Translations under genes and position numbers: made by a program
Virus record (IMG/VR): IMGVR_UViG_3300012667_000768
Length of the DNA: 64,000 nucleotides
Strand: one strand, 5' to 3'
From: a virus
Taxonomy: Duplodnaviria; Heunggongvirae; Uroviricota; Caudoviricetes
In this document: positions 70 through 55,895 of the stretch, one piece after another
Numbering within the stretch: the stretch's first letter is position 1
Layout of the letters: the number at the start of each line of letters is the position of its first letter
Notes under the pieces: model-generated
The model's database searches: none
What the model saw: only the letters and a program-made list of their open reading frames with translations
What the model was told of the DNA's origin: nothing

Positions 70-3000
70 TTATTTAGCGTCCTTGACAGCTAGTGATACA
101 ACGTATGTGCTGCCTCCATCATATGTGAATAACGACCATACATCAACAGCATTAGCTGTTGTTGTCTGTGGCGGAGCGATACCCCCATTGAACTTAAATG
201 ATGCAGGCCATGTTACCGTACGAGTTCCAGAACCGTCTTGTTTTACTATTAAAGTTAAGGCAGCCGGGAGTTGAGTAGGATTACCACTTATTGCTAGTGT
301 TGTATTACCATTGATCATCATGTAGAGTGTGTCATAAGTAGACACGTCCCATGTCTGTGTTCCAGACACATTAACTAATGAATTTAGATTAGACTTATTA
401 GCTTTTGCATCCACTGTTGTTGTTAGTGAAGATAGTCCAGAAGCAGTTGCATAATAAGAGCCGTGCTGTCCATCAAGAAGATCGGCATCAAGTCCTGATG
501 AAGCTCCATCATTGCCTGCGTGCCATATGGTGTTACCACCGTAAGTAAGAGCTCCAGTACCTGTGCGACCTAGCTGAGTTTGGTCAGCAGTACCAAATAC
601 TATATAAGCAGCCTCTGTATTCTGAACGCCTTTAATGCATACTGTATTACTTACATTAGTATCGCCAATCCAGGCATCATCACCTATTTTAATATTTTCT
701 TGAAGACCATTATTAGTCGTAAAGATCTTAACAAATGTCGGAGAATCGCTAGTTGCTACTGCTTGTCCAATAGACACAGTAGGTGACGCGCCTTCGCTGC
801 CTGATCCCGATACTGTGACACCTGTGCCAGCAGTTATACCTTCAACATAGTTGCCTGTAGTATCTGTGCCAAGCGCTACTGAATTAGCAGCAATTGTAGC
901 TGTTAGAGTTACATCAGCCGATCCATTTAAAGATACAGAACCCGAAAGGTCGCCTCCTAGTGAGATTGTTCTGGCTGTCTGCCATGCAGAAGCTGTACTA
1001 GCATTACCTGTTAGGCTGCCCTCAATATTCGCTACAAGAGTATCTATGGCAAATGTTGCATCAGTAGTAGTAATAGTAGTACTTGGTTCAGTAGTCATAC
1101 CGCTGAATAAATACCATTTATCAGCTGACGCCTTTCTTACTATGCCGGAGTGTTGGTATAGCCCATCGTTAAAGTGTCCGACAATACCTAGATCTGCAGC
1201 ATTACCAGTATTTCCAGTACCAATATAAATTAGAGGATCGGTAATAGATAAATCAGTTGTACTTACTGTAGTAGTTGTACCACTAACAGTTAAGTTTCCG
1301 TTTACTGTGATACTATTGAAAGTAACATCATCTGTAGTACCCACAGGTTGTCCAATCGCTACAGTAGGAGACCAGCCCTCGCCAGCAGTGCCAGATACTG
1401 TAACTCCTGTTCCAGCAGTTAGACCGGCAACGTAGTTGCCTGTTGTGTCAGTACCTAAAGCTACTGAGTTAGCCGCAATAGTTGTTGTAATCGCTGCGTT
1501 TGCACTTCCATTAAAAGATACTGAGCCAGTAACATCTCCTGTTAGAGAAATAGTTCTAGCAGTCTGTAAAGTAGTTGCTGTAGTAGCATTACCACTTAAT
1601 GCAGCAGTGATAATTCCAGCACTAAAATCGCCATCGCCATCTCTAGCTACTACAGTATTACCTGTATTATTTTTGGTAGCATTGACACCAAGAGTTAGTG
1701 CCGCACCTTCTGATCCTACTCCTGATCCGCCAGTAATATAAGAGCCATTAGCAATAGTTGCTACATAGTTTCCAGTTGTATCTGTCCCAAGCGCTACTGA
1801 ATTAGCAGCTACAGTAGCCGTTAATGTAGCATTAGCTGAACCATCAATAGATACAGATCCAGTAAGATCTCCACCTAATGTGATTGTTCTAGGAGTGGTC
1901 CACTTAGCCGCTGATCCTGTTATGTTATCAGAAGCTATAATAAATCCAGCTCCATTAGCTAACTGAGAAGTATTGGTCGGTATAGTTATAGCACCGGTAG
2001 TGGAGTTATAATCGCCACTTCCAGCTGTAAAAGTTAAAGCCGATCTAGCACGAGCATCAGTGAAATAAAGATTTGTTGTACCTTCTGTAATCTCGTCGGT
2101 ATTATCTTTACCCGCTACAGCAGTGTCTACATAACTCTTAGTGGCTATTGTAGAAGTATCTACCGATACCTGTCCTGTTGCAATAGTAATACCGCTTCCT
2201 GCAGTAAAGTGTGCCCTAACTTCCGAAGCACTTGGACCTGTATATGAAAATACACCAGTTCCGCTATCATAAGCTAAGCTACCATCTCCGCCATTGTCAG
2301 TTACACTAACTGCGCCTCTTGCTCTAGTATTAGTATAGTAAAGATTAGTTGTACCTTCTGTAATTTCGTCAGTATTATCTTTCCCAGATACTGCTGTATC
2401 TACATAAGAACGTGTTGCCATTACAGCAGTATCAGCAGCTACTTGTCCATCCGTGATTGTAACGCCAGCTCCAGCAGTAAAGTGTGATCTAACTTCACTC
2501 GCACTAGGGCCTGTGTATACAAGAGCCCCTGTAAGTGTATTATAAGTTAGACTACCGTCACCACTAGCATCTGTTAGTGATATAGCATTTCTGGCTCTCG
2601 AATCTGTATAGTAAAGATTAGTTGAACCTTCTGTAATTTCATCGGTGTTATCTTTTGTAGCAAGAGCAGTAGCTATATTATCTGTTACATAAGTTTTTGT
2701 AGCTACGGTTGAATCTATACTAACAGCACCGTCTGTAATAGAAATACCAGTACTTGCTGTAAAGTGTGCTCTAACATCGGAAGCACTCGGACCTACATAA
2801 GTAATAACGCCATTTGAGTATGATAGAGATCCATCACCACCAGAGTCTGTGACGCTAATCGCATCTCTTGCTCTAGCTGTTGTAAAGTAAAGATTATTTA
2901 CACCTTCTGTGATTTCGTCAGTATTATCTTTTCCAGCAACTGCATTTGTCACAGTAGTAGTAACAAAGCTCTTTGTAGCTAGTACATCTGTATCTGCTCC

Positions 3001-3225
3001 AATCACTCCAGAGTTATAAGTAATACCTGTTGTTGCTGAAAGATCATCTAAGCTAATAAAGCTGGTGATATCAGAAGCTCTAGCTAATGGATATCCTCCA
3101 TTTAAAGATCCGTCGTGTACTACTAAAGTATCCTTTGTAGTATCTACTGTTACTTCGCCTACGGCTCCAGCAAAAGTAGTATGTTCCGCGGTTGTTCCGC
3201 GTCTAAGTTGAATTTGTTTTGACAT
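70..3225 (-). CDS. large tail fibre protein with internal tandem repeat domains
   Basis: 1051 aa; N-terminal QLRRGTTAEH...GEV motif shared with the next 3 genes; 4 copies of a ~95-aa repeat (KDNTDEITEG..NLY(F/Y)T..RAR) and 3 copies of TISLxGD..GTDTTGNYV; DNA-level repeats visible. Confidence 0.75.
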   Translation of the reverse strand: MSKQIQLRRGTTAEHTTFAGAVGEVTVDTTKDTLVVHDGSLNGGYPLARASDITSFISLDDLSATTGITYNSGVIGADTDVLATKSFVTTTVTNAVAGKDNTDEITEGVNNLYFTTARARDAISVTDSGGDGSLSYSNGVITYVGPSASDVRAHFTASTGISITDGAVSIDSTVATKTYVTDNIATALATKDNTDEITEGSTNLYYTDSRARNAISLTDASGDGSLTYNTLTGALVYTGPSASEVRSHFTAGAGVTITDGQVAADTAVMATRSYVDTAVSGKDNTDEITEGTTNLYYTNTRARGAVSVTDNGGDGSLAYDSGTGVFSYTGPSASEVRAHFTAGSGITIATGQVSVDTSTIATKSYVDTAVAGKDNTDEITEGTTNLYFTDARARSALTFTAGSGDYNSTTGAITIPTNTSQLANGAGFIIASDNITGSAAKWTTPRTITLGGDLTGSVSIDGSANATLTATVAANSVALGTDTTGNYVATIANGSYITGGSGVGSEGAALTLGVNATKNNTGNTVVARDGDGDFSAGIITAALSGNATTATTLQTARTISLTGDVTGSVSFNGSANAAITTTIAANSVALGTDTTGNYVAGLTAGTGVTVSGTAGEGWSPTVAIGQPVGTTDDVTFNSITVNGNLTVSGTTTTVSTTDLSITDPLIYIGTGNTGNAADLGIVGHFNDGLYQHSGIVRKASADKWYLFSGMTTEPSTTITTTDATFAIDTLVANIEGSLTGNASTASAWQTARTISLGGDLSGSVSLNGSADVTLTATIAANSVALGTDTTGNYVEGITAGTGVTVSGSGSEGASPTVSIGQAVATSDSPTFVKIFTTNNGLQENIKIGDDAWIGDTNVSNTVCIKGVQNTEAAYIVFGTADQTQLGRTGTGALTYGGNTIWHAGNDGASSGLDADLLDGQHGSYYATASGLSSLTTTVDAKANKSNLNSLVNVSGTQTWDVSTYDTLYMMINGNTTLAISGNPTQLPAALTLIVKQDGSGTRTVTWPASFKFNGGIAPPQTTTANAVDVWSLFTYDGGSTYVVSLAVKDAK

Positions 3226-3241
3226 TTATAAATTCCAATCG

Positions 3242-4834
3242 TCAGGCGACGCTATCTGTAATCAGACCATAGTCCGCAGAAGAAGTAACTGGTCCAGTGA
3301 TAAATCCATAGTCCATAAGATCCATGATTCTTTGTTCGAATACTAACCAAGTTGTACCAGTGTAAATAAAGCTAGCATGTGTACGTATCTGGTCTAACAG
3401 AATATCATCTGCCTCATTAAGAATAGTACTACCATTTCTACCTACTGTTACGTGATTAGTATCGAAATAAGCATAAGCATCCATAATAACTACTTCATCA
3501 CCGACGCTAGGATTAGCAGGTAATGCTACAGATACAGGATTAGATCTAGTATCTACGAATACTCCTTCGTTATTACCAGTCGCGGTATAGTTAACACTAG
3601 TGCTCGTCCATACTTTTCCGCCTAGGCTAGTAGGTAAGTTATCTAAATCATTGTAGTCATTGGAAGTAGCTACTGCAGCGAGTCCTGTTACACCTATCTC
3701 TATAGAGGCATCGCCAAGAGTAATACCTATATTGTCTCCTGCGGTTATTTCAGCATTTTCGTATACGTTTAGAGTTTCGTTGCGAATAAGTATAGATCCA
3801 GCAGTATTTGTTCCACTAATCTTTACATCATGTAACTCATTAGTTTCATACCCATTCTGAATTTTTACGTAAATAACACCTACAGTAGCATGACTACGAA
3901 TACATACACCTACATACACAGCGTGATCAGGTGCCTGAGGTATAGTAGTAGTGTAGGCTCCAGGAGTAGTTGGAGATAGCCACAGCGCAGATCCTACTGG
4001 ATATGCTGATGTGTTCAACCCTGTTAAGTACCCAGTAGTGATACAGAATGAACTAGCACCACCAGTTACAGTCTTTGCTATCACACCGAAAGTTTTGGAG
4101 GACTTACTCTCTAAATTAGCTTGAGCAGGACGTACAGTTTGGTTGGCTCCTGTCGAGCCTACTGTGTATACTACTTCACCCTTAGTTAGTCCAGCATTAT
4201 CAGCGTCCCTAACTAGAATAGCGTTAGTCTGTCCTAGTTCAATAGCTAAACCACTATCATCTAATCCTAGGGATAATCCTTGTCGGTCTGCGTTCCAGTA
4301 TAACTTTCCAGTCTCAGGAACTTCAGCTGCTGTAGTATCGAATTGAATAAAGTCAAAGTGTTCGTCTTCAGTCTGATAGTAGCTTCTCCAAGTAGAGCCG
4401 GTGTATACGTATGTAACAGCTATGCCCTTTACATGGAGTACTTCATCTTCTGATACTCCTTCTACAGTTGAACTATTTCTGCTAACTGTTAGAGGATTGT
4501 CGCTAAAGTCATTGCCATCAATAATTACAACTTGAGTACCCTCAGTAGGAGTAGGTGGTAGCGTTATAGTAAAACTACCTCCAGAAGTATCTGCAATGAT
4601 TCCGTCTTTGTCAGAAGCAGTATAACTTCCCGTTTTTACAGTAAAGTCTATACCTCCTGGTTGTTGCATACCTATCTCAACAATACTTTCAGTACCGTCA
4701 TCTTTCTTAAGGTATAACTTGCCGTCATAAGTATTGATAGCAAGTTCGCCAAGTTCTAGTTGGCTAGTCTGCGGAACCTTTGTCGGTTCCGCAGATCTTC
4801 TTAATTTCAGTAAATTAGCCATATGGCTCCCCAT
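3242..4834 (-). CDS. tail fibre / receptor-binding protein
   Basis: 530 aa; N-terminal GELAINTYDGKLYLKKDDG motif typical of phage fibre proteins; position within the fibre cluster. Confidence 0.65.
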   Translation of the reverse strand: MGSHMANLLKLRRSAEPTKVPQTSQLELGELAINTYDGKLYLKKDDGTESIVEIGMQQPGGIDFTVKTGSYTASDKDGIIADTSGGSFTITLPPTPTEGTQVVIIDGNDFSDNPLTVSRNSSTVEGVSEDEVLHVKGIAVTYVYTGSTWRSYYQTEDEHFDFIQFDTTAAEVPETGKLYWNADRQGLSLGLDDSGLAIELGQTNAILVRDADNAGLTKGEVVYTVGSTGANQTVRPAQANLESKSSKTFGVIAKTVTGGASSFCITTGYLTGLNTSAYPVGSALWLSPTTPGAYTTTIPQAPDHAVYVGVCIRSHATVGVIYVKIQNGYETNELHDVKISGTNTAGSILIRNETLNVYENAEITAGDNIGITLGDASIEIGVTGLAAVATSNDYNDLDNLPTSLGGKVWTSTSVNYTATGNNEGVFVDTRSNPVSVALPANPSVGDEVVIMDAYAYFDTNHVTVGRNGSTILNEADDILLDQIRTHASFIYTGTTWLVFEQRIMDLMDYGFITGPVTSSADYGLITDSVA

Positions 4835-4863
4835 TCACGCTTATATAAGCGGGGCTTTATATA

Positions 4864-6156
4864 TTAAAATGTTCCGCCGTCAATATCACCCCATGCAGGC
4901 ACACCGCCTACTAGTTGGAGTATTTGACCCTCTGCTTGCACAGCTAAAGCAGCTAGTGTATTAGTACCTGAAGCATAGATAATGTCGCCGGCTACATAAG
5001 ATGTTAGACCTGTACCACCTTTAGTAGTAGCAATAGTTGTAGCATTCCATGTACCAGTAGCAACTGTACCTAAGGTAACAATACTAGTCTGACCTACATA
5101 GGCAGAGTCAATATCTACGCTGTCGCCATATACTACGATTCTATTTGTAGTACCTACTACATCTAGCTGATTACCAGACTTAGTAAGACCAGCGCCAGCA
5201 ATAACTTGACCAGCACCACTGAACTGAGATACAGTAACATCAGAAACACCTAGTGTTCCACCTACGTTAACTGTGATTAAATAACCATTATCTCCATTAA
5301 GAGTACCTTGCTCTACGAAGGCGAATGCACTGATAAGTTCATTCCAAGTATTAGCATCAGCGGCTCTATCCCAAGCACTAGCAGAAACTACATATATACC
5401 ATTCTGGTGAGCAGTATCTTGATTCTTTACTAGTACTCTATCTCCAGCGATAACAGCAATGCCGTCAATTGTCTGAGTGCCTGATAGTGTAATATTTGCA
5501 GTTGTAGCTACTCTTACGCTATCCTTAGGTGAGATACCTTGAACAGCGGAGTCTACATAATTCTTTGTTGCAGCATCCTGAGCATTTACAGGGTCGGCAA
5601 GACCTGTAATATTCTGTGAGTTAAAACTTACAGATGCGTTTGGCGCAGTCATCTGATCGAGGCGATTTGTACGTACCTGCGTATCGAAATCGCTGATCTT
5701 TGAAGCCGCTAAAGTAGGAATGTCACTAGCTGATAGTGTTGTTCCTGCGGTAGCACGACCCTTAGAGTCGATAGTTACTTTTGTATAAGTACCCGCAGTA
5801 ATACCAGTGTTTGCTAGTGTAATAGCAATTGAGGTCGCGCCAGTACCTGTCGCGTCACCTGTTAGAGTAATGGTTTCATTACCTGTTAGGTATGTATTAG
5901 TATCTAGTGTCCAGGTATCTGCGCCTGTTCTTTTTAGGAATCCAGTACCTGTAAGGCTAGAAATAGCGGTAAGATCAGCATCTAGTGCTTGTACTTCATC
6001 TAGTCTAGCCATTTTGACGAAGGTATTGTTGGATGTACCAATAGCAATACGACCTTCATCTGTGATTAAGTATGGCTCAGCTTGGTTTAAGGTCTGCGCT
6101 GTTATGGCAGATGCTAACTGGCTTGCAGTACCTCTTTTAATTTTTAAAAGTGTCAT
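4864..6156 (-). CDS. tail fibre protein
   Basis: 430 aa; N-terminal IKRGT...EPYLITDEGRIAIGTS motif (conserved fibre N-terminal box); Gly/Thr-rich. Confidence 0.65.
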   Translation of the reverse strand: MTLLKIKRGTASQLASAITAQTLNQAEPYLITDEGRIAIGTSNNTFVKMARLDEVQALDADLTAISSLTGTGFLKRTGADTWTLDTNTYLTGNETITLTGDATGTGATSIAITLANTGITAGTYTKVTIDSKGRATAGTTLSASDIPTLAASKISDFDTQVRTNRLDQMTAPNASVSFNSQNITGLADPVNAQDAATKNYVDSAVQGISPKDSVRVATTANITLSGTQTIDGIAVIAGDRVLVKNQDTAHQNGIYVVSASAWDRAADANTWNELISAFAFVEQGTLNGDNGYLITVNVGGTLGVSDVTVSQFSGAGQVIAGAGLTKSGNQLDVVGTTNRIVVYGDSVDIDSAYVGQTSIVTLGTVATGTWNATTIATTKGGTGLTSYVAGDIIYASGTNTLAALAVQAEGQILQLVGGVPAWGDIDGGTF

Positions 6157-11045: not shown

Positions 11046-11573
11046 CAGATACTTATCCTTATCTGGCGAAGTGAAGTAGGCTGTTTCTTCCTCACGAGTC
11101 AATTTTCTATGTTGGGGAATACTCTTTTTATCCTTCCAACATACATAAGTGGTCCCGTCGAAAGGTATAGTCCAGGGTTCGATACTCATCTTATCTCCTT
11201 ATTGAAATGGCCCGTTCTGTTTCTAGGTGGAACCATACCCAATGTCTTAGTGCTTACGCAGCAAGAGCAAATGCAACGTCGTTATCGTTTGCAGTTATGT
11301 TTTGTGGCACTTTGCCAGTCAATAGTCTCGGCGTTCCTATTACTCGAAAATCGATCCTAGTTCGCCCCCATCATAGATACACTGGTGTGCTACTACGCTA
11401 AAGGATTGACCGTTACCCGATGGGAACTCGAACATTGTCCAACGGCAGTAATCCACTCCTTAGACGATGGCTGCTTCTAGGCCCACGTCCCAATGTATCT
11501 ATGGTGGAGGCGGCGGGTGCTGCCCCCGCGTCTTTCCGCTTTTATTGTCGGCTGTCAGCGACTATAGTCATCA

Positions 11574-11602
11574 GATATAACAAAAGTTACTCTGAAAGTC
11601 AA
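11574..11602 (-). promoter_or_regulatory. promoter TTGACT-N17-TATATC
   Basis: fires into the 480-bp non-coding stretch 11100-11570. Confidence 0.4.
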
Positions 11603-11605
11603 GAA

Positions 11606-12280
11606 TTATTTCTTTATTGCTATGAAATTTGCTTGGTAGTGTCTAGGCGTCATAATATTTAGTCTATTTCTAGCTTCGATTAAGTTTTCACTGAGCAGTA
11701 GATCGTAGTCCTCTGCTAGTAGAAATGACGCGTTCTTGCCCATACTATACGCTTCTATAAGAAGTTTTATATAGCTATACTTTATTCCCTTATGTAAAAG
11801 AGCTATTATTGATATTAATAACCACCCAGGAGCTTTTGTCTGAGTATAAGAGAACATGGCTAAGCACATTTCGCCAATATAAGAGGTATCGTATCCAGTA
11901 AGAGTATGCCATACGTCATGAACATCAGAATATCTTCTAGCAAGCCAGCTATAAGGATGCCTGGCTTCTATCCATTCTTTTTTGCCTTTGCGATTTAATA
12001 CTGGTAAGTAATCTTCTATATTTGGATACTGAAGGTAAGTTTCCTTTCCTACAGAACCCTCTGGCCTAGAAGATAGGTTTCTGAAATAGGTAGATACTTC
12101 TTCCGAATTGTATACTACCTCTCCGCCCTTTTTACTAGATATTAGCTTATTAAGCATACTCTTCAAAGAGTAACGATTAGTGACATATATAAGATATACA
12201 CTAAACTTAGGGTTCTCTGGATTTTTATAAAGCTTTTTACTTATTTTATACGCCGATTTAAGATCTAGTTTTGGCAGCAT
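11606..12280 (-). CDS. hypothetical protein with COQ4-like HDxxH-x11-E metal-binding motif
   Basis: 224 aa; VHDVWHTLTGYDTSYIGE matches the HDxxH-(x)11-E pattern of the COQ4 family. Confidence 0.45.
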   Translation of the reverse strand: MLPKLDLKSAYKISKKLYKNPENPKFSVYLIYVTNRYSLKSMLNKLISSKKGGEVVYNSEEVSTYFRNLSSRPEGSVGKETYLQYPNIEDYLPVLNRKGKKEWIEARHPYSWLARRYSDVHDVWHTLTGYDTSYIGEMCLAMFSYTQTKAPGWLLISIIALLHKGIKYSYIKLLIEAYSMGKNASFLLAEDYDLLLSENLIEARNRLNIMTPRHYQANFIAIKK

Positions 12281-20629: not shown

Positions 20630-20703
20630 TGGAGCGGAATGCGGGAATCGAACCCGCCTCGTCAGCTTGGAAGGCTGTCATAATACCACTATACCAATCC
20701 CGC
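20630..20703 (-). tRNA. tRNA (anticodon probably UCC, Gly), CCA encoded
   Basis: reverse complement GCGGGATTGGTATAGTGGTATTATGACAGCCTTCCAAGCTGACGAGGCGGGTTCGATTCCCGCATTCCGCTCCA; 7-bp acceptor stem (one GU); T-arm GGTTCGATTCC. Confidence 0.65.
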
Positions 20704-20704
20704 G

Positions 20705-20776
20705 TACCAATGGCTAGACTCGAACTAGCGACATAAGGAATATGAGTCCTCTGTTCTACCACTGAACTACACTGGT
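20705..20776 (-). tRNA. tRNA-Met (CAU)
   Basis: reverse complement ACCAGTGTAGTTCAGTGGTAGAACAGAGGACTCATATTCCTTATGTCGCTAGTTCGAGTCTAGCCATTGGTA; anticodon loop CTCATAT; 72 nt. Confidence 0.7.
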
Positions 20777-20855
20777 GTATAAAAAGGGCCGTCCACAGGA
20801 GGTTGCAAGACACCTGCCAAACCTGTGCGTTACTGTGTTTCCAACGGAAGTTAAT

Positions 20856-20932
20856 TGGTTGCGGGGATCGGATTCGAACCGATGACCTTTAGGTTATGAG
20901 CCTAACGAGCTACCTGACTGCTCCACTCCGCG
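20856..20932 (-). tRNA. initiator-like tRNA-fMet (CAU)
   Basis: reverse complement CGCGGAGTGGAGCAGTCAGGTAGCTCGTTAGGCTCATAACCTAAAGGTCATCGGTTCGAATCCGATCCCCGCAACCA; close to E. coli tRNA-fMet, including the C1-A72 mismatch and the three G-C pairs in the anticodon stem. Confidence 0.75.
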
Positions 20933-21399
20933 TCAAATGCTATTAAAAGACACTAGTAAAGTGATAAAGGTCCAAAAAACCACGATCGCTTCTATAAATT
21001 CGGCCTTGAATGTATACTAATGTCATTTAATAGCACTCCTAAGAATGCTACGAGAAGGATGAGATTACTCCTTCTATCGGAAGTCTTTGGTCATTACCCA
21101 ATCCCTTGCGAGGATGGTTCTACCTTTATCCACCAGAACGTCTCACGACTGTTCTAGTAACTTCCAGTGCTGCTTTATTATAGTGATAGCTTTTTCACTG
21201 TCATACCATGCTACTCACTCATTATTAACCCGTCTACCTTGCGAGCAGTTCAGTTCCGCTAAGAACTTACGTTTTCACTTCGAGCGAACAAATCCAGCTT
21301 GCGACCTTCATTGCACCATCTTCTATTACTAGGATGGTATTAAGCACCTTTCACATGGCACCGAAGCGGACTTTGCGTTTTCTATATATCGTTCCATGA

Positions 21400-21472
21400 T
21401 ATACGTTATAGGATTTGAACCTATGACTCTCTAATTAATGGTTAGATGCTCTACCAACTGAGCTAAACGTAA
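21400..21472 (-). tRNA. tRNA-like gene with non-canonical anticodon loop (CCAUUAA)
   Basis: reverse complement TTACGTTTAGCTCAGTTGGTAGAGCATCTAACCATTAATTAGAGAGTCATAGGTTCAAATCCTATAACGTATA; good D- and T-arms; 1-72 mismatch; position 33 is C. Confidence 0.5.
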
Positions 21473-21933
21473 AGTTGCTAACCTACCTCGAAGTGCCACT
21501 TCCGCTGCTTCATATCCTTTTGAGATACAAAATACAACACTCCGACTGTCTTTCTCCTTGCGAGATACTAAACCATGCTTCTGGACTTTCACCCATTGCA
21601 TTGCCACTTAGCCCTTCCACGCGAATGGTCGAACACAGTGACTACCAGTTAATTGTACGCACCTCATGTTTTGGCTTGTTATGGAACAGGACGCCAATCC
21701 CTTTATCCCTCACCGACCGGCTCTGGGCATATATCCTTTCGGACCATAACAACAATCCATGCGATGATTGCCTAGCTAAATAGACAATGACACGCTTTCG
21801 GCTATAAACCGAGTCGTATCCAACGCTGGCTTGCATAGTAGGACTCTTGCGAGCGGAGGTATGTAGGAATTCCTCCGTTGGCCACATTGCTGTGGTTATC
21901 CTTTATAGAGCGCTATGCCGCTCTTGAATATCT

Positions 21934-26511: not shown

Positions 26512-26770
26512 CTAATTTAGTCCACATATGAGAGTTGCGAGGAATGTTAGGAATAATAGTATAGTTATCCCCATCTTTAAATACTAGCCTATCATGTACG
26601 CCAGGCTTGAATGCACTAGCTGGAGCCTGCTCGCCATAATACCTAAAGATAAGATCTGATGGCTGTGGAGAGTTAGCCAGTAGAGTTTCTACTAGTTCTG
26701 CGTTGAAAGAGCGACGAGGCTTATGCTCTCCGCTCTTATTTGTCCACTCAGGAATAGTGATTCTGTACAC
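26504..26770 (-). CDS. hypothetical protein
   Basis: 88-aa ORF. Confidence 0.5.
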   Translation of the reverse strand: MYRITIPEWTNKSGEHKPRRSFNAELVETLLANSPQPSDLIFRYYGEQAPASAFKPGVHDRLVFKDGDNYTIIPNIPRNSHMWTKLDA

Positions 26771-27215
26771 GTTCTTTAATCTCCAAATAAAACTGATGAT
26801 ACTTGGCGATACGCTGAATATCCTTATCAGTTACGCCCTTTAGACGACGAATATCAGAGTTGTGACGAAGATCACACAGCTTGACTCGCATTGCATCTTC
26901 ATTCGCAAACACTTGACGCTTATATTCGTCATAGGTCTGACCACGCTGCTTCGTAAGCGAGTATATACCTGTAATTACTCTTTCACTAAAGCCAAGTTCT
27001 TTTAGCTGGTGATAAGTTACGTCTGTGTCTTCTACTAGGTCGTGACCTAGCGCAATGCACATCAGTTCTTCGTCGTCGCTTTTTAGATAGTGCATGACTT
27101 TAAGGCAGTGCATGATATAAGGCTTTCCAGCCTTATCCGTCTGCCCATCATGAGCATTGGTTGCTAGATGCAACATTTTGCTTAACATCATCAATTTCCT
27201 TTCTAATAGCTTCAT
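26748..27215 (-). CDS. HD-domain (p)ppGpp hydrolase-like protein (small alarmone hydrolase)
   Basis: AHDGQTDKAGKPYIMHCLKV...GHDLVEDT matches the RelA/SpoT-type HD hydrolase motifs; true start may be an internal Met. Confidence 0.6.
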   Translation of the reverse strand: MKLLERKLMMLSKMLHLATNAHDGQTDKAGKPYIMHCLKVMHYLKSDDEELMCIALGHDLVEDTDVTYHQLKELGFSERVITGIYSLTKQRGQTYDEYKRQVFANEDAMRVKLCDLRHNSDIRRLKGVTDKDIQRIAKYHQFYLEIKERVQNHYS

Positions 27216-35144: not shown

Positions 35145-35175
35145 TAAAAAAAGAGGCTTTCGCCTCTTTTCTTTA
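35145..35175. terminator. bidirectional intrinsic terminator
   Basis: AGAGGC-tttc-GCCTCT with A7 before and T-run after. Confidence 0.6.
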
Positions 35176-35646
35176 GGCCGCAAGCCTTTCGTTTATCTTG
35201 GTTGCGTCATAGCATTTTATGCCGATTGAAACCATTGCATCAATAACCTTTAGGTTATCGTCAAACATGATTGCCTTAGCATCGGCAGCGCAATTGAAAC
35301 CTTCACCAATGAAATAGGTTTCAAGCAAACGAATCTTAAGGCTTGCATCGGATTCCATATTGCCCATTTCACGATGCAGCAAAGCGTCATAGGGAAGGCG
35401 ATTAACAGCAAGAAAAATCTTATCGGCTGGCTGGACTGCCCGCGCTGTGCAAACAATAACCTTATGCCCGATTGAAACCATAGCGCGCATTGACTCGGCT
35501 AAAGGCAAAAGCGAATCGGACATAATCTTTTCTGCGGTATTGTTAGCGAACCAATGGTCAAGGTCAAGCGAGCCATCGGCTTTAGTCGCTTGGCGATGCG
35601 TCGAATCAATCACAGTGCCATCTAGGTCAAAAATAATGTAAGCCAT
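35173..35646 (-). CDS. HAD-superfamily hydrolase/phosphatase
   Basis: motif I FDLDGTVIDS, motif II VCTAR, motif IV MFDDN. Confidence 0.7.
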   Translation of the reverse strand: MAYIIFDLDGTVIDSTHRQATKADGSLDLDHWFANNTAEKIMSDSLLPLAESMRAMVSIGHKVIVCTARAVQPADKIFLAVNRLPYDALLHREMGNMESDASLKIRLLETYFIGEGFNCAADAKAIMFDDNLKVIDAMVSIGIKCYDATKINERLAA

Positions 35647-40189: not shown

Positions 40190-40434
40190 TGTTGAGCTTA
40201 TGTATCGCACTAGGACTAATACTCGCATCAGGTATCCTGATAGGAGTGGTAGTAGCCTGTAAAAAATTTGGTGATCTAAATAAAGATGGTAAAGTAGATA
40301 TTGATGATGCTAAGATTGTAGCAGATATTAATAAGGATGGTAAGGTAGATCAGGCAGACTTAGATATTGCTAAGAATGCTATGAAAGAAGCAGCTAAGCA
40401 AGTAACAGCTGTACTAGGTGAGAAAAAGAAATGA
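40189..40434 (+). CDS. holin-like membrane protein (1 TM)
   Basis: 81 aa; one TM helix and a KDGKVD repeat tail; overlaps the endolysin start. Confidence 0.45.
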   Translation: MLSLCIALGLILASGILIGVVVACKKFGDLNKDGKVDIDDAKIVADINKDGKVDQADLDIAKNAMKEAAKQVTAVLGEKKK

Positions 40435-41618
40435 AATTAACAGAGCACTTCACATTAGAAGAGTTAACTGTATCTCCTACTGCGAAGAAGCTTGGTATTC
40501 CTAATACGCCTACTCCAGAACATATTGAAAATATGAGATATGTCTGTGAGAAGATTCTAGAACCTGTTCGTGCACACTTTGGAAAGGCTGTAACGATTAA
40601 TTCGTCTTACAGATCTCCAGCAGTAAACGCAAAAGTTGGTGGATCAAAGACTTCGCAACACTGTAATGGTGAAGCAGTAGACTTTGAGATCCAGGGCATA
40701 TCCAATAAGGCATTAGCCGATTGGGTAGGTGATAACTTAGAGTTCGACCAAGTAATTCTAGAGTTCTGGTCTTCGAAAGAAGGAGCCAATTCAGGTTGGG
40801 TACACGCTTCTATTAAGCGCAACGGAAAGAACAGAAAGCAGAGATTAATCGCTACAAAGAAAGGTGGTAAGACTACTTATACTCCGGTAGCAGATTTCGA
40901 TCCTTCTACTGTTCCGGGCGAAGTAAAGCATATTGCAGCTATTGCTAAGCAAGCTGCCGCTGTACCAACCAAAGAGATTGCAGCTACTACAGTAAAGAGT
41001 ACTAATCCTATAGCAGCACTTCAGGAAAAAGCTGGAGTAGCCGCGGACGGAATCTTTGGTCCAGGCACAATGAAAGCCTCAGCTGATTATTACAAGATGT
41101 CAAAGGCTAGAGCAGCTCACTTCTTTGCACAAACTGCTCATGAGACTGGAAACTACAAAGCTTTTAGCGAAAATCTAAACTACTCAGCAGACGGACTAAA
41201 TAAAATCTTCCCTAAGTATTTCATCAAAGCTGGCAGAAATGCAGCTAACTATGCTAGAAATCCTGAGAAGATCGCAAATGTTGTGTACGCTGGTAGAATG
41301 GGCAATGGCCCAGAAGCTTCTGGAGACGGATGGAAGTATCGCGGACGCGGTGCTCTACAGTTAACAGGCAAGGACAACTACGCAGCTTTCTCAAAGTTCT
41401 GTAATAGACCAGATGTTATGGACAATCCGGATATAGTAGCGGGTGAACTCGCTTTTGAATCAGCATTGTTCTTCTTCGAAAGAAATAAATTATGGTCAGT
41501 ATGTGACTTAGGCGTTAATGACGCAGTAATTCTAGCACTAACCAAAAAGATTAATGGCGGAACACACGGTCTAGAAGATCGTAAAGCCAAAACTAAAAAA
41601 TTCTTCTCTCAATTATAA
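40431..41618 (+). CDS. multidomain endolysin: M15 peptidase, peptidoglycan-binding domain, GH19 lysozyme-like domain
   Basis: FTLEEL..SSYRSP..SQHCNGEAVDF (M15-type peptidase); IAALQEKAGVAADGIFGPGT (peptidoglycan-binding); AHETGNYKAFSE...GDGWKYRGRGALQLTG (GH19). Confidence 0.75.
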   Translation: MKLTEHFTLEELTVSPTAKKLGIPNTPTPEHIENMRYVCEKILEPVRAHFGKAVTINSSYRSPAVNAKVGGSKTSQHCNGEAVDFEIQGISNKALADWVGDNLEFDQVILEFWSSKEGANSGWVHASIKRNGKNRKQRLIATKKGGKTTYTPVADFDPSTVPGEVKHIAAIAKQAAAVPTKEIAATTVKSTNPIAALQEKAGVAADGIFGPGTMKASADYYKMSKARAAHFFAQTAHETGNYKAFSENLNYSADGLNKIFPKYFIKAGRNAANYARNPEKIANVVYAGRMGNGPEASGDGWKYRGRGALQLTGKDNYAAFSKFCNRPDVMDNPDIVAGELAFESALFFFERNKLWSVCDLGVNDAVILALTKKINGGTHGLEDRKAKTKKFFSQL

Positions 41619-45641: not shown

Positions 45642-46928
45642 ATGTTAGTAAGTAGAGCAGATATTCCCACAGACGTAATCGTCCAGTACCCTCAGGCATT
45701 TATGAAGGTACCTATCGGTAATTATCTAAAAGAATTAGACGTAGACCCATTGCCATCACAGATAGCACTAGTAAATGGTATAAATAATCCAAAGTACCGC
45801 TTTGGATGTGCTGCTCTATCTCGACGTCAAGGTAAAACTTATATAGCAAATATTGTGGGCCAGGTAGTAGCTTTAGTACCTGGCTCACATGTGCTTATCA
45901 TGGCTCCAAACTATTCTCTATCTCAGATTTCTTTTGATCTACAAAGAAACCTAATAAAGAAGTTCGGACTAGAGGTAACTAAAGATAATGCTAAAGACAA
46001 AGTTATTGAGCTATCTAACGGCTCCACTGTCAGAATCGGTTCAGTCAATCAAGTTGACAGTTGCGTTGGTCGTTCATACGATCTTATCATTTTTGACGAA
46101 GCCGCGCTAACAGATGGGATGGAAGCTTTCAATGTAGCACTTCGTCCTACACTTGATAAGCCTAATTCAAAGGCGCTATTTATTTCGACTCCTCGTGGTA
46201 AAAACAATTGGTTCTCAACTCTCTTCGATAGAGGATTTAGAGACGATTTCCCCGAGTGGTTCTCTGTAAAAGCGACTTGGAAAGATAATCCAAGAATGAC
46301 AGAGAGCGACGTTGCCGAAGCTCGTCGCTCCATGAGCGAAGCTGAATTCCGTCAGGAATATGAAGCCGACTTCTCAATCTTCGAAGGTAAGATTTGGCAA
46401 GTACAATCAGAGTGTATACGTCCATTTGAACTTAATTTTAAGAAATGCGATGTGTTCGCAGGGCTCGACCTTGGATTTAGAGATCCTACTGCGATGTGTG
46501 TAGTAGCCTTCTCATGGGAAGATGAAAACTTCTACCTATTAGATGAGTATCTAAATAATGAAGAAGTTACTTCCGGACATGCGCGAGAGATAAAGAAGCT
46601 AATAGATAAGTGGAACATCGACTATATCTATATCGACTCTGCCAACCAGCAGCAGAGATATGACTTCGCACAAGAATACGATATACCTACTACTAATGCT
46701 AAGAAATCAGTATTAGACGGAATAGGCTATATTGCCTCATTGGCAGATAATAACAAAATTATTATCGACCCAGAATTACATCACGTGCTTCACGCATTCG
46801 ACCAATATCAGTGGGATCCGAATGGAGCACTACAAAGGGAAAAGCCCTTACATAATGATGCCTCGCACATGGCCGACGCTCTTAGGTACGCGCTTTATAG
46901 TTATAAAACTAACGTAGGAGGTTTTTAA
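45642..46928 (+). CDS. terL: terminase large subunit
   Basis: Walker A SRRQGKTY, Walker B YDLIIFDEA; C-terminal nuclease-like acidic residues. Confidence 0.75.
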   Translation: MLVSRADIPTDVIVQYPQAFMKVPIGNYLKELDVDPLPSQIALVNGINNPKYRFGCAALSRRQGKTYIANIVGQVVALVPGSHVLIMAPNYSLSQISFDLQRNLIKKFGLEVTKDNAKDKVIELSNGSTVRIGSVNQVDSCVGRSYDLIIFDEAALTDGMEAFNVALRPTLDKPNSKALFISTPRGKNNWFSTLFDRGFRDDFPEWFSVKATWKDNPRMTESDVAEARRSMSEAEFRQEYEADFSIFEGKIWQVQSECIRPFELNFKKCDVFAGLDLGFRDPTAMCVVAFSWEDENFYLLDEYLNNEEVTSGHAREIKKLIDKWNIDYIYIDSANQQQRYDFAQEYDIPTTNAKKSVLDGIGYIASLADNNKIIIDPELHHVLHAFDQYQWDPNGALQREKPLHNDASHMADALRYALYSYKTNVGGF

Positions 46929-49227: not shown

Positions 49228-49501
49228 ACAAATTTTAATCGAAACATTAAAAGATTACTTTACCGCAAAAGGTAAGTTTCTTACAATGGACGAGTACAAA
49301 GAACAAGCAGACGCTCCTTACCGCTTTCAGATTGTTAAAAGAACAGTAGGAAGTTGGAGCCGTCTAAAAGGTTTAATAGGTGATATTTCAGCTCCAGTAG
49401 CTGCAGTAGCTCCAAAGCAACCAGCACCTAAACCAGTAGCTGCTAAACCAGCTCCTGCTGCTCCAGAAGCAGAAGCAGGAGCGACAGAAGCTAATGGCTA
49501 A
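49220..49501 (+). CDS. hypothetical protein (Ala/Pro-rich C-terminus)
   Basis: start MSRQILIE overlaps the portal stop. Confidence 0.4.
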   Translation: MSRQILIETLKDYFTAKGKFLTMDEYKEQADAPYRFQIVKRTVGSWSRLKGLIGDISAPVAAVAPKQPAPKPVAAKPAPAAPEAEAGATEANG

Positions 49502-52280
49502 AGTAGGTGGAGAGGAAATAAGCCTCACCCCTACAGACAGCATGGCTAGTGAAGCACAAAGAGGGCTTGACTGGAGAGAAGATGGATTTGACGGAGGTAC
49601 GCCAATTGGTTTAGCTAGAGCTAGACAATTAGTGAATAGACAAGAGCTATCACCAAGTACCGTACGAAGAATGCACAGCTTCTTCAGCAGACATGAGGTG
49701 GATAAACAAGGCGAAGGATTTAGTCCTGGTGAGCCTGGTTATCCTTCAAATGGCAGAGTAGCCTGGGCTTTATGGGGTGGTGACGCCGGTCAGACATGGG
49801 CAAGAGCAAAATCAGCAACTCTAGATAGACTAGAAGGTAAATCTATAGACTATACTAAAGAGTTTTCAGAAGATTTTGGCTCTTCATGTCCAGCAGTTAC
49901 ACATGACGAATTACTCAACGTACAGAATCATTTAGTAACAATACAAGAAGCAAATTTAGGACCAGCAGATCCTACAGCTCCAGAGAACGAGTTCTGGGCC
50001 AATATGGCCGAGACATGGTCTATGTCAGAGCAGGAAGCAAGAGCTCGTCAGTGTCAAAACTGCGAATACTATAAGAATAGTCCTAAAATAATTGACTGCT
50101 TAAATTCTTCTGAATTTAAAGCATCAATGCTTCCAGTAGAGCCTAAGTGGGCAGATACAGATCCAGTAAGTGGATACTGTACTAAGTTTGACATAACTTG
50201 CTCTGCTAGACGTACTTGCTCAGAATGGGATAAACAAAAGTTTATGCCAGAAGATGAAGATGAGGAAGGTCAAGACGAGTCTTCAATGATGGAGCTAAGT
50301 GCTAGAGGAAAAGCTATGAACAAGATTTTTAAGTTAGATTCTTCTATTAAATCTATTAAAGAAGATGAAGACGAACTAAAAATTACAGGTTACGCAAGTA
50401 CAAATGCTATGGATAGATCATGCGATCGCATACTTCCAACAGCTTGGACTAAAGGCGGACTAAAGAATTTCAAAACAAATCCTATACTATTATTTAATCA
50501 TAACTATGACAAGCCAATAGGCAAAGTAATAGCAATGGGTACGGACAGTAAAGGGCTACAGATTAAAGGAGTCATCAGTAAAAGCGCTGGCGACGTCTAT
50601 AATCTTGTGAAGGAAGGTGTTTTATCAACTTTCTCAGTCGGATTTTTAATCAAAGACGCAGAATACGATAAACAGGTCGATGGGCTAGTTGTTAAAGACG
50701 CCGAACTCTTAGAGGTATCAGTAGTATCTGTACCTTGCAACCAAGATGCTACATTCTCGGTAGCTAAGTCATTCGATAATCAGGATGATTATCTAAAATT
50801 TAAACAACAATTTTTTGACAATGCTCTAGGTGGTCAGCCTCTCGCTGAAGAAACCAGAGGCTCATCAGAGGACGCTGCAAAAGAAAAGGCGTCAAGGAAA
50901 TTAACAATGGACGAACAAAACGATATGATTCAGAAGGCCGTAGCTGCTGCTCTAGAAGCCTCAGATAAGGCTCGCGCCGAAAAGGCTGCTGCTGAGCAAG
51001 CAGAAAAGAAGGCTGCTGAAGAAATGGAAGCTAAGGTTGCTACTGCTACTGCAAAGGTACTAGCTTCTTCAGAAGAAAAACTTTATGCTGAACTAGAAAA
51101 GCGCTTCCAGGATAAGGAAGTAAACCTAGAAAAGGCTCTAGAAGGTCTACGTGGCGAACTAGCTGAAAAGTCAGTTGAACTACAGGCTATCAGCCAGTCA
51201 AAGAGAGTATTCTCAGACCGTAACGATAACGGAAGCTGGAAGAAGACTTTCGCTCCTGATATGGAAAATGCATACCTACTAGGACGCATCACAAAGAAGG
51301 GATATGACACAAACTTTGGTCGCTCACTTCTAGAAAAGGTAAACGCTCACTCATCAGTTCAGGTCTCATCAGCAGACTTCGAACAGGAAGTTTCATCAAA
51401 CATCGAACGCGACATTCAGAACGAACTAATCCTCGCTCCAATGTTCCGTGAAATCGCGATGAACACAGCTTCAATGATCCTACCAATCATGCCAGATAGC
51501 GGCTACGCCGAAATCACAGGTAATGCTGGATCAACAGACGCAACAAATCCAAATGGTACACTAGAATCACGCGGCGGAACAAACCGTGGCGGTATCGCTC
51601 TAAGCGAAGTCGAACTACGTACTGTAAAGATGGTTGCAAAGAGCTATCTAGGCAACGAAACAGAAGAAGATGCAATTCTTCCTATTCTTCCACTACTACG
51701 TGAAGCAATGATCCGCTCACACGCACGTGGCGTAGAAAATATGATCCTACTTGGTGGACACGCAGACGGCGCTTACTCAAGCATCACAGCTGCTTCAGGT
51801 CTTCTAAAGTATGCATCAAGCAGCTCACGTGATGTAGCTGCTGCCGGTACTGCAACAGCTCTAACAGCTGCTGCGCTACTTGGTCTACGTAAGCAGATGG
51901 GCAAGTATGGCCTACGTGCTAATGATGTTGCTTACATCGTTTCACAACAGTGCTACTTTGAACTACTAGAAGATGCTGAGTTCCAGGACTTCAACCTAGT
52001 TAACACCCAAGCAACAAAGCTAACTGGTGAAGTTGGTCAGGTATTCGGTTCAGCAGTAATGGTATGTGACGAGTTCCCAACAGCAGCCGCCGGTAAGTAT
52101 CACGCTCTAGCTGTCAACAAGCGCAACTTCGTAATCCCACGTCAACGTGGTGTTACTGTAGAAAGCGACTACCTAGTTGAAGATCAGCACAGAGTGCTTG
52201 TAACTTCACAGCGTCTTGGCTTCAAGGAAATCATCCCAGGTGCTAAGTCTGTAATCGGTCTAAAGTACGCTGCTTCATAA
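49494..52280 (+). CDS. prohead protease, scaffold-like coiled coil and HK97-fold major capsid fusion protein, with an extra Cys-rich N-terminal domain
   Basis: 928 aa; protease-like block KITGYASTNAMDRSCDRILP...LLFNHNYDKPIG; coiled-coil, Ala/Glu/Lys-rich middle; capsid-like C-terminus; strong terminator follows. Confidence 0.6.
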   Translation: MAKVGGEEISLTPTDSMASEAQRGLDWREDGFDGGTPIGLARARQLVNRQELSPSTVRRMHSFFSRHEVDKQGEGFSPGEPGYPSNGRVAWALWGGDAGQTWARAKSATLDRLEGKSIDYTKEFSEDFGSSCPAVTHDELLNVQNHLVTIQEANLGPADPTAPENEFWANMAETWSMSEQEARARQCQNCEYYKNSPKIIDCLNSSEFKASMLPVEPKWADTDPVSGYCTKFDITCSARRTCSEWDKQKFMPEDEDEEGQDESSMMELSARGKAMNKIFKLDSSIKSIKEDEDELKITGYASTNAMDRSCDRILPTAWTKGGLKNFKTNPILLFNHNYDKPIGKVIAMGTDSKGLQIKGVISKSAGDVYNLVKEGVLSTFSVGFLIKDAEYDKQVDGLVVKDAELLEVSVVSVPCNQDATFSVAKSFDNQDDYLKFKQQFFDNALGGQPLAEETRGSSEDAAKEKASRKLTMDEQNDMIQKAVAAALEASDKARAEKAAAEQAEKKAAEEMEAKVATATAKVLASSEEKLYAELEKRFQDKEVNLEKALEGLRGELAEKSVELQAISQSKRVFSDRNDNGSWKKTFAPDMENAYLLGRITKKGYDTNFGRSLLEKVNAHSSVQVSSADFEQEVSSNIERDIQNELILAPMFREIAMNTASMILPIMPDSGYAEITGNAGSTDATNPNGTLESRGGTNRGGIALSEVELRTVKMVAKSYLGNETEEDAILPILPLLREAMIRSHARGVENMILLGGHADGAYSSITAASGLLKYASSSSRDVAAAGTATALTAAALLGLRKQMGKYGLRANDVAYIVSQQCYFELLEDAEFQDFNLVNTQATKLTGEVGQVFGSAVMVCDEFPTAAAGKYHALAVNKRNFVIPRQRGVTVESDYLVEDQHRVLVTSQRLGFKEIIPGAKSVIGLKYAAS

Positions 52281-54767: not shown

Positions 54768-55895
54768 ATGGCAGTAGGTGACTCAAACCTTTATTTCAGT
54801 AGAGATACTAAGGTATTCCTATCAAAGAATGGCACTATCTGGGAGATCCCTGTTCTAAACGGATATTCGTTCTCTCAAACTACAAATTCAAGCACAATCA
54901 CACTATCAGAAATGTCTGATGCTACAGGTGCTAGCCGTCGTGGTCAGCGCGTGTTCAACGACTCAGTTTCACCATCAGAGTGGAGCTTCGATGTATACGT
55001 ACGTCCAACACTAAATACAACTGTTAAGGCTGTGGAAGAAGCACTATGGGCTAACTTTGTTGCAGCTAACACATACGCTACAGGCGAATGGACAAAGGCA
55101 GTAACTCGCGATGCAGATGCTCTAGACTTTGACTTTGCTGATTCAAACGTATCTGAACTAGGTACCTTCGATCTATACTTCGTACTTGGTGGAAACCAAG
55201 CAGGTGCAGGTCCACAGAATTACACTGCAAGTGATGTTACAACAATCTACAAGATTCCAGGTTGCGTAGCAAACGAAGCTACAGTTAACTTCGAAGTAGA
55301 CGGTATCTCAATGATCTCATGGTCAGGTATGGGTGGTAGTATTGCGGAACAAGCTTCATTCGACGCTTCAGCAGCTATTACAACTGGTATTACTTCAACA
55401 AGTAACTACATCCGTAACCGTCTAACTGCTCTTAAGGCAGTAAGCTCGGTTTCAGGTAGCTCAAAGACTTACAATATCGTTCTAACAGGCGGTAGCTTAA
55501 CTCTAAGCAACAACATCAGCTTCCTGACACCAGAAAGCATCGGCGTTGTTAACCAGCCAATTGGTCACATTACAGGTACTCGTTCAGTATCAGGTTCATT
55601 CACTTGCTACCTAGACGAAGCTACTAACGGATCAATCGACTTACTATCTGATCTACAAGGCGCTCTAACAACAGTTACAAACTCCTTCGCATTGGACTTC
55701 TATGTCGGTGGTAAGGATGGAGTAAATGATGCTCCTGTAGGTCCTGGCGTACAGTTTAAGATGGGACAGTGCCACCTTGAAATTCCAACCATTAACAATG
55801 ACGATGTTATTGCTCTAGAGGTTAATTTCACGGCGCTACCATCCAATATCAGTGGTACGAACGAAATCCAGAAGATTTCTTACGTAGCTGCCTGA
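54768..55895 (+). CDS. major tail (tube) protein
   Basis: strong Shine-Dalgarno AGGAGAAATAAAA; highly expressed-type codon usage; followed by an 11-bp-stem terminator. Confidence 0.55.
   Translation: MAVGDSNLYFSRDTKVFLSKNGTIWEIPVLNGYSFSQTTNSSTITLSEMSDATGASRRGQRVFNDSVSPSEWSFDVYVRPTLNTTVKAVEEALWANFVAANTYATGEWTKAVTRDADALDFDFADSNVSELGTFDLYFVLGGNQAGAGPQNYTASDVTTIYKIPGCVANEATVNFEVDGISMISWSGMGGSIAEQASFDASAAITTGITSTSNYIRNRLTALKAVSSVSGSSKTYNIVLTGGSLTLSNNISFLTPESIGVVNQPIGHITGTRSVSGSFTCYLDEATNGSIDLLSDLQGALTTVTNSFALDFYVGGKDGVNDAPVGPGVQFKMGQCHLEIPTINNDDVIALEVNFTALPSNISGTNEIQKISYVAA

Follow-up and report, generated by a model that had tools for sequence, protein, structure and literature searches.

GOLLD RNAs are reportedly found together with tRNA islands in phages and prophages, as set out by Weinberg in 2009. 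The presence of GOLLD genes in tRNA islands, and of tRNAs in the GOLLD linker, has already been described (Kretsch et al. 2025, PMC12286853; PMC6582537), and one GOLLD RNA, env-38, adjoins a Met-tRNA (PMC12286853). The pairs A11-U24 and G12-C23 completely discriminate bacterial initiator (fMet, formylmethionine) tRNAs from elongator Met and Ile(CAU) tRNAs (Silva et al. 2006, PMC1635315). An anticodon stem of the type au/GC/GC, or "1st AU", in which the first of the three G-C pairs is replaced, is a natural initiator form in alpha-proteobacteria and some mycoplasmas; 1st-AU mutants sustain E. coli, although less efficiently, and the base that matters most is G30 (Shetty et al. 2017, PMC5389676). 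Widespread phage-borne initiator-like tRNAs, au/GC/GC initiators and GOLLD genes beside tRNA islands are all, in other words, already known. Here we analyze the IMG/VR virus record IMGVR_UViG_3300012667_000768, a stretch of 64,000 nt referred to as the window, and in it a tRNA gene with the anticodon CAU at 20856-20932 on the minus strand. The interpretation that we favor, with a probability of about 0.72, is that this gene specifies a functional phage-encoded fMet-type initiator tRNA of the natural au/GC/GC (1st-AU) subclass.

Identity and class of the tRNA gene

The gene at 20856-20932 was found on the minus strand both by ARAGORN and by the Rfam tRNA model (RF00005, 59.4 bits, E 2.6e-10). 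The tRNA is 77 nt long, has a templated CCA and reads, from 5' to 3', CGCGGAG U G GAGC AGUCAGGUA GCUC G UUAGG CUCAUAA CCUAA AGGUC AUCGG UUCGAAU CCGAU CCCCGCA A CCA. Its set of tertiary-interaction residues (U8, A14, G15, G18, G19, A21, C48, T54, C56 and A58) is complete, and so is the set for methionyl-tRNA synthetase (MetRS), consisting of the anticodon C34 A35 U36 and the discriminator A73. C1 faces A72 with no Watson-Crick pair, a position that is also non-canonical in the Rfam alignment, while the acceptor strands CGCGGAG and CCCCGCA provide the formyltransferase determinants G2-C71, C3-G70 and G4-C69. The D stem, GAGC/GCUC, contains A11-U24 and G12-C23. Compared to the E. coli references, the tRNA is identical to the K-12 initiator metZ at 66 of 77 positions (85.7%), to the elongator metT at 59.2% and to ileX at 53.3%. 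Because of the discriminator pairs A11-U24 and G12-C23, the formyltransferase and MetRS determinants and the closeness to metZ over metT and ileX, 20856-20932 is, as judged from its sequence, a real tRNA gene of the initiator type. An elongator tRNA-Met or a tRNA-Ile2 could be read from the CAU anticodon alone, and the homologues in GenBank phages are indeed annotated "tRNA-Met". That reading can hardly be right, given a D stem with A11-U24 and G12-C23 instead of Y11-R24, an unpaired 1:72 position, and identities to metT and ileX (59% and 53%) far below that to metZ.

The initial annotation of this gene had put its identity to E. coli tRNA-fMet at about 85%, and had based an initiator class on an unpaired C1-A72 acceptor end and three consecutive G-C pairs in the anticodon stem. 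The identity and the acceptor end were confirmed, and the class itself stands on the discriminators, the formylation determinants and the closeness to metZ, but the three G-C pairs are not there. The anticodon stem (27-31/39-43), UUAGG/CCUAA, is built of U27-A43, U28-A42, A29-U41, G30-C40 and G31-C39, so that the series 29:41, 30:40, 31:39 is broken at 29:41 by an A-U pair and G-C pairs are found only at 30:40 and 31:39. The tRNA fits, by this stem, the known natural 1st-AU subclass and not the canonical form. The lost first G-C pair is no argument against the initiator class, because au/GC/GC is natural, 1st-AU initiators work in E. coli, and the crucial base is G30, which is invariant in an alignment of the E. 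coli initiator, 12 phage initiator-like tRNAs and the window tRNA. The top BLAST matches, at 87.0% identity, come from some E. coli strains with a variant allele of the gene. In strain 510016 one initiator copy (61-137 of our locus L342; NZ_CP025851.1, 1529397-1529473) has the stem UCAGG...CCCGA, with an A29xC41 mismatch, and the G29A change in such copies presumably explains why the top identity is 87.0% and not 85.7%.

Initiator-like tRNAs in other phages

By BLAST, similar tRNAs are carried by 159 of 50,697 GenBank phage records. The carriers include Caulobacter phage CcrColossus, Sinorhizobium phage phiM12, Pectobacterium phage CBB, Cronobacter phage GAP32 and Aeromonas phage AP1, as well as Vibrio, Streptomyces and Gordonia phages, LoVEphage and crAss-like phages; in the GenBank matches listed they are annotated throughout as plain tRNA-Met, except for a few Vibrio records with no tRNA product label. 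The functional interpretation gains support from this distribution, because similar tRNAs are present in many cultured tRNA-rich phages (CcrColossus, phiM12, CBB, GAP32, AP1). In IMG/VR, the exact 28-nt anticodon arm of the window tRNA was found in 92 contigs, where it is combined with very different acceptor and T arms, and a general initiator-arm pattern was found in at least 120 further contigs, which makes more than 200 contigs, the majority of them without G29-C41. A phage initiator tRNA, at first described as unusual, is therefore unusual only relatively, and not rare in absolute terms.

The composition of these tRNAs was taken from 114 usable tRNAs among the general-pattern IMG/VR matches listed. 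A11-U24 occurs in 102 of them, G2-C71 in 103 and A73 in 102, and position 1:72 is mostly mismatched (CA 32, CU 18, UU 12, AA 12). Position 29:41 is A-U in 43%, G-C in 32% and U-A in 24%; G29-C41 is missing, that is, in 68%. A29-U41 is also present in the cultured phages CBB and GAP32 of Enterobacterales and D484 and phi-Grn1 of Vibrio. E. coli, a relative of those hosts, has the canonical stem with three G-C pairs. Loss of the first G-C pair thus seems to be typical of phage-borne initiator-like tRNAs and not special to the window tRNA, with the caveat that A29-U41 turns up frequently, too, in metagenome contigs chosen without regard to viral origin and in metagenome-assembled genomes (MAGs) of several phyla. 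The type of the 29:41 pair showed no association with membership in a tRNA island, as against tRNAs found alone that could belong to the host or to an att site. As the sole explanation of A29-U41, simple mimicry of an alphaproteobacterial host was not adopted, since the Enterobacterales and Vibrio phages show the same change. As side observations, five metagenome contigs (L352, L358, L364, L366 and L373) have initiator-like tRNAs with the loop CCCAUAA, in which C33 replaces U33, and in L373 a second, truncated 3' tRNA half lies 355 nt downstream, as would be left by an integrated element at an att site.

Conservation of the locus in a related contig

An 18-kb IMG/VR contig, L031, contains a GOLLD RNA (1099-1546, 217.6 bits), a hairpin, an identical tRNA, an orthologous CAU tRNA and a tRNA(CUA), in that order, and it allows the locus to be compared element by element. 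Between the window and L031, identity is 95.5% in the GOLLD 3' domain, 96.7% in the hairpin spacer and 100% (77/77) in the initiator tRNA; it falls to 80.6% in the second CAU tRNA, where 14 of 72 positions differ and the changes at 7:66 and 28:42 are compensatory, to 51% in the third tRNA slot, which holds tRNA-Gly(UCC) in one and tRNA(CUA) in the other, and to 68-79% in the coding flanks; altogether, identity in the flanks ranges over 50-83%. The initiator tRNA is the most conserved element of the locus, and we read its complete identity as a probable mark of purifying selection, in favor of a functional tRNA. A scan of IMG/VR and the JGI metagenomes with the T-arm/acceptor pattern returned L031 as the only true relative; the other 30 loci have unrelated initiator-like tRNAs with the same T arm. 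The tRNA(CUA) of L031 (1834-1908, plus strand) has the anticodon of an amber suppressor and is called "Pyl" by ARAGORN; in the window, TAG terminates only 2 of 28 long ORFs (open reading frames). Suppression or recoding of stop codons is a possibility in L031.

Several observations weigh against a functional initiator. The acceptor stem of the tRNA has an A6xC67 mismatch, flagged by Rfam, which weakens the stem, and the minimum free energy (MFE) structure drops pairs 6-7. The mismatch is no assembly error, because it is common to the window and L031, but it occurs in only 1 of the 114 IMG/VR tRNAs and, within the exact-arm set, in L031 only; at 6:67, the unrelated tRNAs that share its T arm are paired, as G6-C67 or A6-U67. 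Moreover, the 1st-AU variant initiates less efficiently in E. coli (PMC5389676), and the complete identity between the window and L031 could stem in part from a recent exchange of the GOLLD-tRNA block and not from selection on the tRNA only.

The same mismatch, together with the lost G29-C41, could be taken as disabling changes in a decaying, non-functional copy of a host initiator. The rarity of the mismatch and the lowered efficiency of the first-pair change would both suit such a copy, as would a folding z of -0.6, no better than shuffled sequence. We find decay improbable all the same. The tRNA is identical to that of L031 at 77 of 77 positions while the tRNA next to it differs at 14 of 72, its tertiary and identity nucleotides are all intact, and au/GC/GC is a working natural form; as for the folding score, low z values are typical of genuine tRNAs, and the neighboring tRNA-Gly has the same z of -0.6. 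A functional initiator of the 1st-AU subclass remains our preferred interpretation.

The GOLLD RNA and the hairpin spacer

Directly upstream of the tRNA island, on the minus strand, lies a GOLLD RNA (Rfam RF02032, 21056-21545), which cmscan scored at 201.7 bits, above the gathering score of 150 (E 1.9e-55), over the full model (1-416). The GOLLD RNA, 123 nt upstream of the tRNA, and the A6xC67 mismatch were both absent from the initial annotation. Where the Rfam model ends, a 123-nt spacer (20933-21055, minus strand) leads up to the tRNA. It is predicted to fold into a long hairpin, with an MFE of -36.1 kcal/mol and a z of -4.9, none of 200 shuffles being as stable, and the hairpin stem closes 2 nt short of C1. 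Another phage contig, L202, has a similar arrangement on the minus strand, in which GOLLD (455-917) is followed by a 129-nt hairpin (326-454; -45.5 kcal/mol, z -5.6) that differs in sequence from that of the window, and a tRNA-Ala comes directly after the hairpin. The hairpin that follows GOLLD may be a conserved 3' GOLLD extension or a processing element beyond the Rfam model.

The order on the minus strand is GOLLD, the 123-nt hairpin spacer, the initiator-type tRNA, a 79-nt spacer, the second CAU tRNA, 1 nt and tRNA-Gly(UCC). A promoter consensus scan found no promoter-like site in the spacer between GOLLD and the tRNA, and for this reason we propose that the tRNA is co-transcribed with GOLLD. 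A near-consensus sigma-70-like site (21177-21204, minus strand; ATGACA, 16 nt, TATAAT, 11/12) is located inside the conserved GOLLD 3' domain, upstream of the tRNAs; sigma-70-like sites are no more numerous in the region than in shuffles, and this one is the only strong match.

The layout raises the question of whether the tRNA is kept chiefly as a folding and cleavage signal, with RNase P setting the 3' end of a GOLLD-hairpin RNA and decoding being secondary. The contiguous block of GOLLD, hairpin and tRNA is 95.5-100% conserved amid diverging surroundings, the hairpin stem closes 2 nt before C1, L202 repeats the order with an analogous hairpin directly followed by a tRNA, and GOLLD genes are found in tRNA islands, with env-38 beside a Met-tRNA (PMC12286853). 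The tRNA of L202 is, however, a tRNA-Ala, so any tRNA would serve, and the full set of initiator determinants and the CCA would be left unexplained. We regard punctuation as the chief role of the tRNA as quite doubtful, although punctuation and decoding are not mutually exclusive, and decoding as an initiator remains the interpretation that we follow below.

GOLLD itself carries a tRNA-like insert in its variable linker (21398-21473, minus strand), called "Asn AUU" by ARAGORN, scored at 62.3 bits by the Rfam tRNA model and folded as a cloverleaf in the MFE structure. Its anticodon loop, CCAUUAA, is odd in having C33 instead of U33, and A34, with the anticodon AUU; AAU is the commonest Asn codon of the phage (43 per 1000). 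The insert has no counterpart in the GOLLD of L031, and L202 has a tRNA-Lys(CUU) in its place.

Neighboring tRNAs and codon usage

The second CAU tRNA (20705-20776, minus strand, the lower boundary being 20704/5) was found by ARAGORN and by Rfam (68.4 bits) and has no encoded CCA. It had been described as an elongator-type tRNA-Met lying 79 nt from the initiator. The distance is exact, as the intervening bases are 20777-20855, but the body of the tRNA is nearer to Ile tRNAs, with 71.1% identity to E. coli ileX, 60.8% to metT and 56.8% to metZ. Its Ile/Met difference ratio of 0.76 is inside Silva's Ile range of 0.6-0.9 (PMC1635315), and its only phage matches at 99% coverage are in the group of the T5-like Vibrio phage phi 3, in which phi 3 itself carries the annotation tRNA-Ile(GAU) at the matching locus. 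The pairs C4-G69 and C5-G68 are frequent in tRNA-Ile(CAU) and are TilS determinants in E. coli (PMC1635315); the second CAU tRNA has A4-U69 and G5-U68 instead, which counts against Ile2. C3-G70 is present, as in Met tRNAs and in ileX alike. Taken together, the tRNA is probably, if not by any strong presumption, a lysidine-dependent, AUA-reading tRNA-Ile2 and not an elongator tRNA-Met. AUA makes up 32% of the Ile codons of the phage (19 per 1000) and is equal in frequency to AUG.

One nucleotide further, a tRNA-Gly(UCC) with encoded CCA (20630-20703, minus strand) was found by ARAGORN and by Rfam (58.5 bits). Its codon, GGA, makes up 31% of the Gly codons, and the Ile2-like tRNA and the tRNA-Gly(UCC) would fit a pair that supplies A-ending codons. 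In L031 the two CAU tRNAs are 5 nt apart, and by comparison the 79-nt spacer of the window (20777-20855, minus strand) is an insertion. Within it lies a hairpin and then CCCUUUUUAU, and the terminator scan made no call there.

The phage, its host and host nucleases

The viral source of the DNA, assumed at the outset, is borne out by the PHROGs matches in the window, which include a terminase (45642-46928), a protease-capsid fusion (49494-52280), a major tail protein (54768-55895), an endolysin (40431-41618) and tail fibres (70-6156). The terminase shares 47-49% identity with the terminases of T5-like Demerecviridae, and a megablast of 24 kb against the GenBank phages gave a sole match, a 72-nt tRNA in the crAss-like phage cr60_1, with no close relative. 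By these genes and matches the source is a novel T5-like tailed phage. The initial annotation had also placed the tRNA among other translation-related genes, but these turn out to be RNA genes only, namely a two-piece tmRNA (transfer-messenger RNA), the other tRNAs and GOLLD. When 47 window ORFs were scanned with Pfam, no formyltransferase, deformylase or initiation factor came up, a match to IF2_N (E 0.007) being below the cut-off and dismissed. The 47 ORFs do include nucleotide-metabolism genes (ThyX, dUTPase, dCMP deaminase) and others. As further observations, an ORF at 35173-35646 (minus strand) has a PNKP-type phosphatase domain (E 3e-9), and one at 26748-27215 (minus strand) has an HD_4 (RelA/SpoT-like hydrolase) domain (E 2e-6). 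The PNKP-type phosphatase resembles the RNA-repair enzyme of T4, which is used against anticodon nucleases.

The tmRNA (11206-11606, minus strand) is permuted, in two pieces, and belongs to the alphaproteobacterial type; it was found by ARAGORN (as tmRNA*) and by Rfam (alpha_tmRNA 108 bits, tmRNA_permuted 93.2 bits), and its predicted tag is ANDNDVAFALAA; BLAST against phages gave only 35-nt matches. Its type is a hint of an alphaproteobacterial host. The exact 28-nt anticodon arm of the initiator is present in genomes of Rickettsiales, Rhodospirillaceae, Azospirillum and Micavibrio, but in a single scan of genome contigs it was also found in Bacteroidaceae MAGs, Patescibacteria, Omnitrophota and Mycoplasmatota, and the arm alone names no host because it is present across several phyla.

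The host bears on a further explanation, in which the phage copy would survive, or replace losses to, host toxins that cleave the initiator tRNA, the altered pairs at 28-29:41-42 making it a poor substrate. VapC-type PIN nucleases cut tRNA-fMet at 38/39, and in Shigella, Salmonella, Leptospira and Rickettsia the initiator tRNA is the target of VapC toxins (PMC10264068). With the initiator as a VapC target, and with resistance of phage tRNAs to anticodon nucleases already proposed (PMC10264068), the survey results can be seen in this light, as G29-C41 is kept in only 32% of the 114 IMG/VR tRNAs and the Enterobacterales and Vibrio phages CBB, GAP32, D484 and phi-Grn1 have A29-U41; the PNKP-phosphatase-like ORF at 35173-35646 hints at RNA repair. 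On the other hand, the exact arm is the normal chromosomal form in many Alphaproteobacteria, and if the host is one of these, as the tmRNA type suggests, the arm is simply host-like. The loop CUCAUAA and the 38/39 site are the same as in E. coli, phages generally avoid tRNA-fMet where VapC targets it (PMC10264068), and A29-U41 is common also in metagenome contigs not selected as viral. Evasion of host defence is in our view possible but unlikely. It concerns the selective advantage of the gene and is compatible with a functional initiator.

Proposed pathway and implications

From what is observed, namely the gene, the features of its class, its strict conservation and the surroundings in which it lies, a pathway can be envisioned that would run from co-transcription through charging and formylation to use in initiation and a selective benefit. 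The tRNA would be transcribed from the minus strand in one unit with the upstream GOLLD and the two downstream tRNAs and released by RNase P at C1, the 3' CCA being templated. It would be charged by host MetRS through the CAU anticodon and A73, and formylated by the host methionyl-tRNA formyltransferase through C1xA72, G2-C71, C3-G70 and A11-U24. Initiation factor (IF) 2 would then deliver it to the 30S P site, where G30-C40, a pair that is essential in E. coli, and G31-C39 would satisfy the checkpoint of IF3 and 16S rRNA. The benefit to the phage would be an initiator-tRNA pool that is kept or raised in infection, while the neighboring tRNAs would serve the frequent AUA and GGA codons of the phage.

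A more complex proposal with three parts can also be put forth, although we hold the three jointly to be a rather remote prospect. One part, weakly indicated, is that phage-borne initiators form a distinct functional class in which only the indispensable pair G30-C40 is kept and 29:41 (and 31:39) is systematically relaxed whatever the host; U-A at 29:41 is not among the natural bacterial variants given in PMC5389676. The next part, likewise weakly indicated, is that such initiators escape initiator-directed host nucleases or pass the IF3 checkpoint differently, in a manner that favors phage messages. The last is that in this lineage the initiator is made in a GOLLD-hairpin-tRNA unit and that the nanocage formed by GOLLD may act on it, tether it or protect it.

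In the window locus an initiator tRNA and a GOLLD RNA are physically coupled, in a clean and strictly conserved form, and this makes the locus useful for the questions of what GOLLD does and why it is linked to tRNA islands. The survey in turn suggests that most virus-borne initiator-like tRNAs do not have the leading pair among the three G-C pairs described as "universally conserved". A census with host pairing, if it confirmed this, would bear on how phages keep up translation initiation under host attack.

Comparison with known systems

The tRNA-fMet of E. coli (metZ/W/V and metY) and the phage tRNA share the length of 77 nt, C1xA72, G2-C71, C3-G70, G4-C69, A11-U24, G12-C23, the loop CUCAUAA, G30-C40, G31-C39, A73 and the templated CCA. 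Where E. coli has G29-C41, C28-G42 and G6-C67, the phage tRNA has A29-U41, U28-A42 and A6xC67, and the two differ further at 2 positions in the D loop and 4 in the T arm (stem positions 49, 64 and 65; loop position 57). The au/GC/GC initiators of Alphaproteobacteria and some mycoplasmas are alike in the A-U first pair and in keeping G30-C40 and G31-C39 (PMC5389676), and the exact 28-nt segment made up of the 3' side of the D stem and the anticodon arm is common to the phage tRNA and alphaproteobacterial initiators. The bacterial au/GC/GC initiators differ in that their acceptor stem is fully paired from 2 to 7, whereas the phage copy has A6xC67; the best bacterial match found was 69/74.

The initiator-like tRNAs of cultured phages (CcrColossus, phiM12, CBB, GAP32, AP1, phi-Grn1 and cr60_1) are 79-87.5% identical to the window tRNA. 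They share A11-U24, G2-C71, C3-G70 and the invariant G30, most of them deviate from the three G-C pairs at 29:41 or 31:39, and the anticodon arm of the crAss-like cr60_1 is identical to that of the window tRNA. They differ in that 9 of the 12 cultured-phage sequences start with U1, which is mostly paired with A72, 4 have U73 and none has A6xC67. Furthermore, none of those inspected is known to lie beside GOLLD, whereas the window tRNA adjoins it. The known GOLLD/tRNA-island loci, for their part, resemble the window in having GOLLD inside a tRNA island and a tRNA-like insert in the variable linker. The window differs from these loci in that its adjacent tRNA is of the initiator type and is joined to GOLLD through a conserved long hairpin outside the Rfam model.

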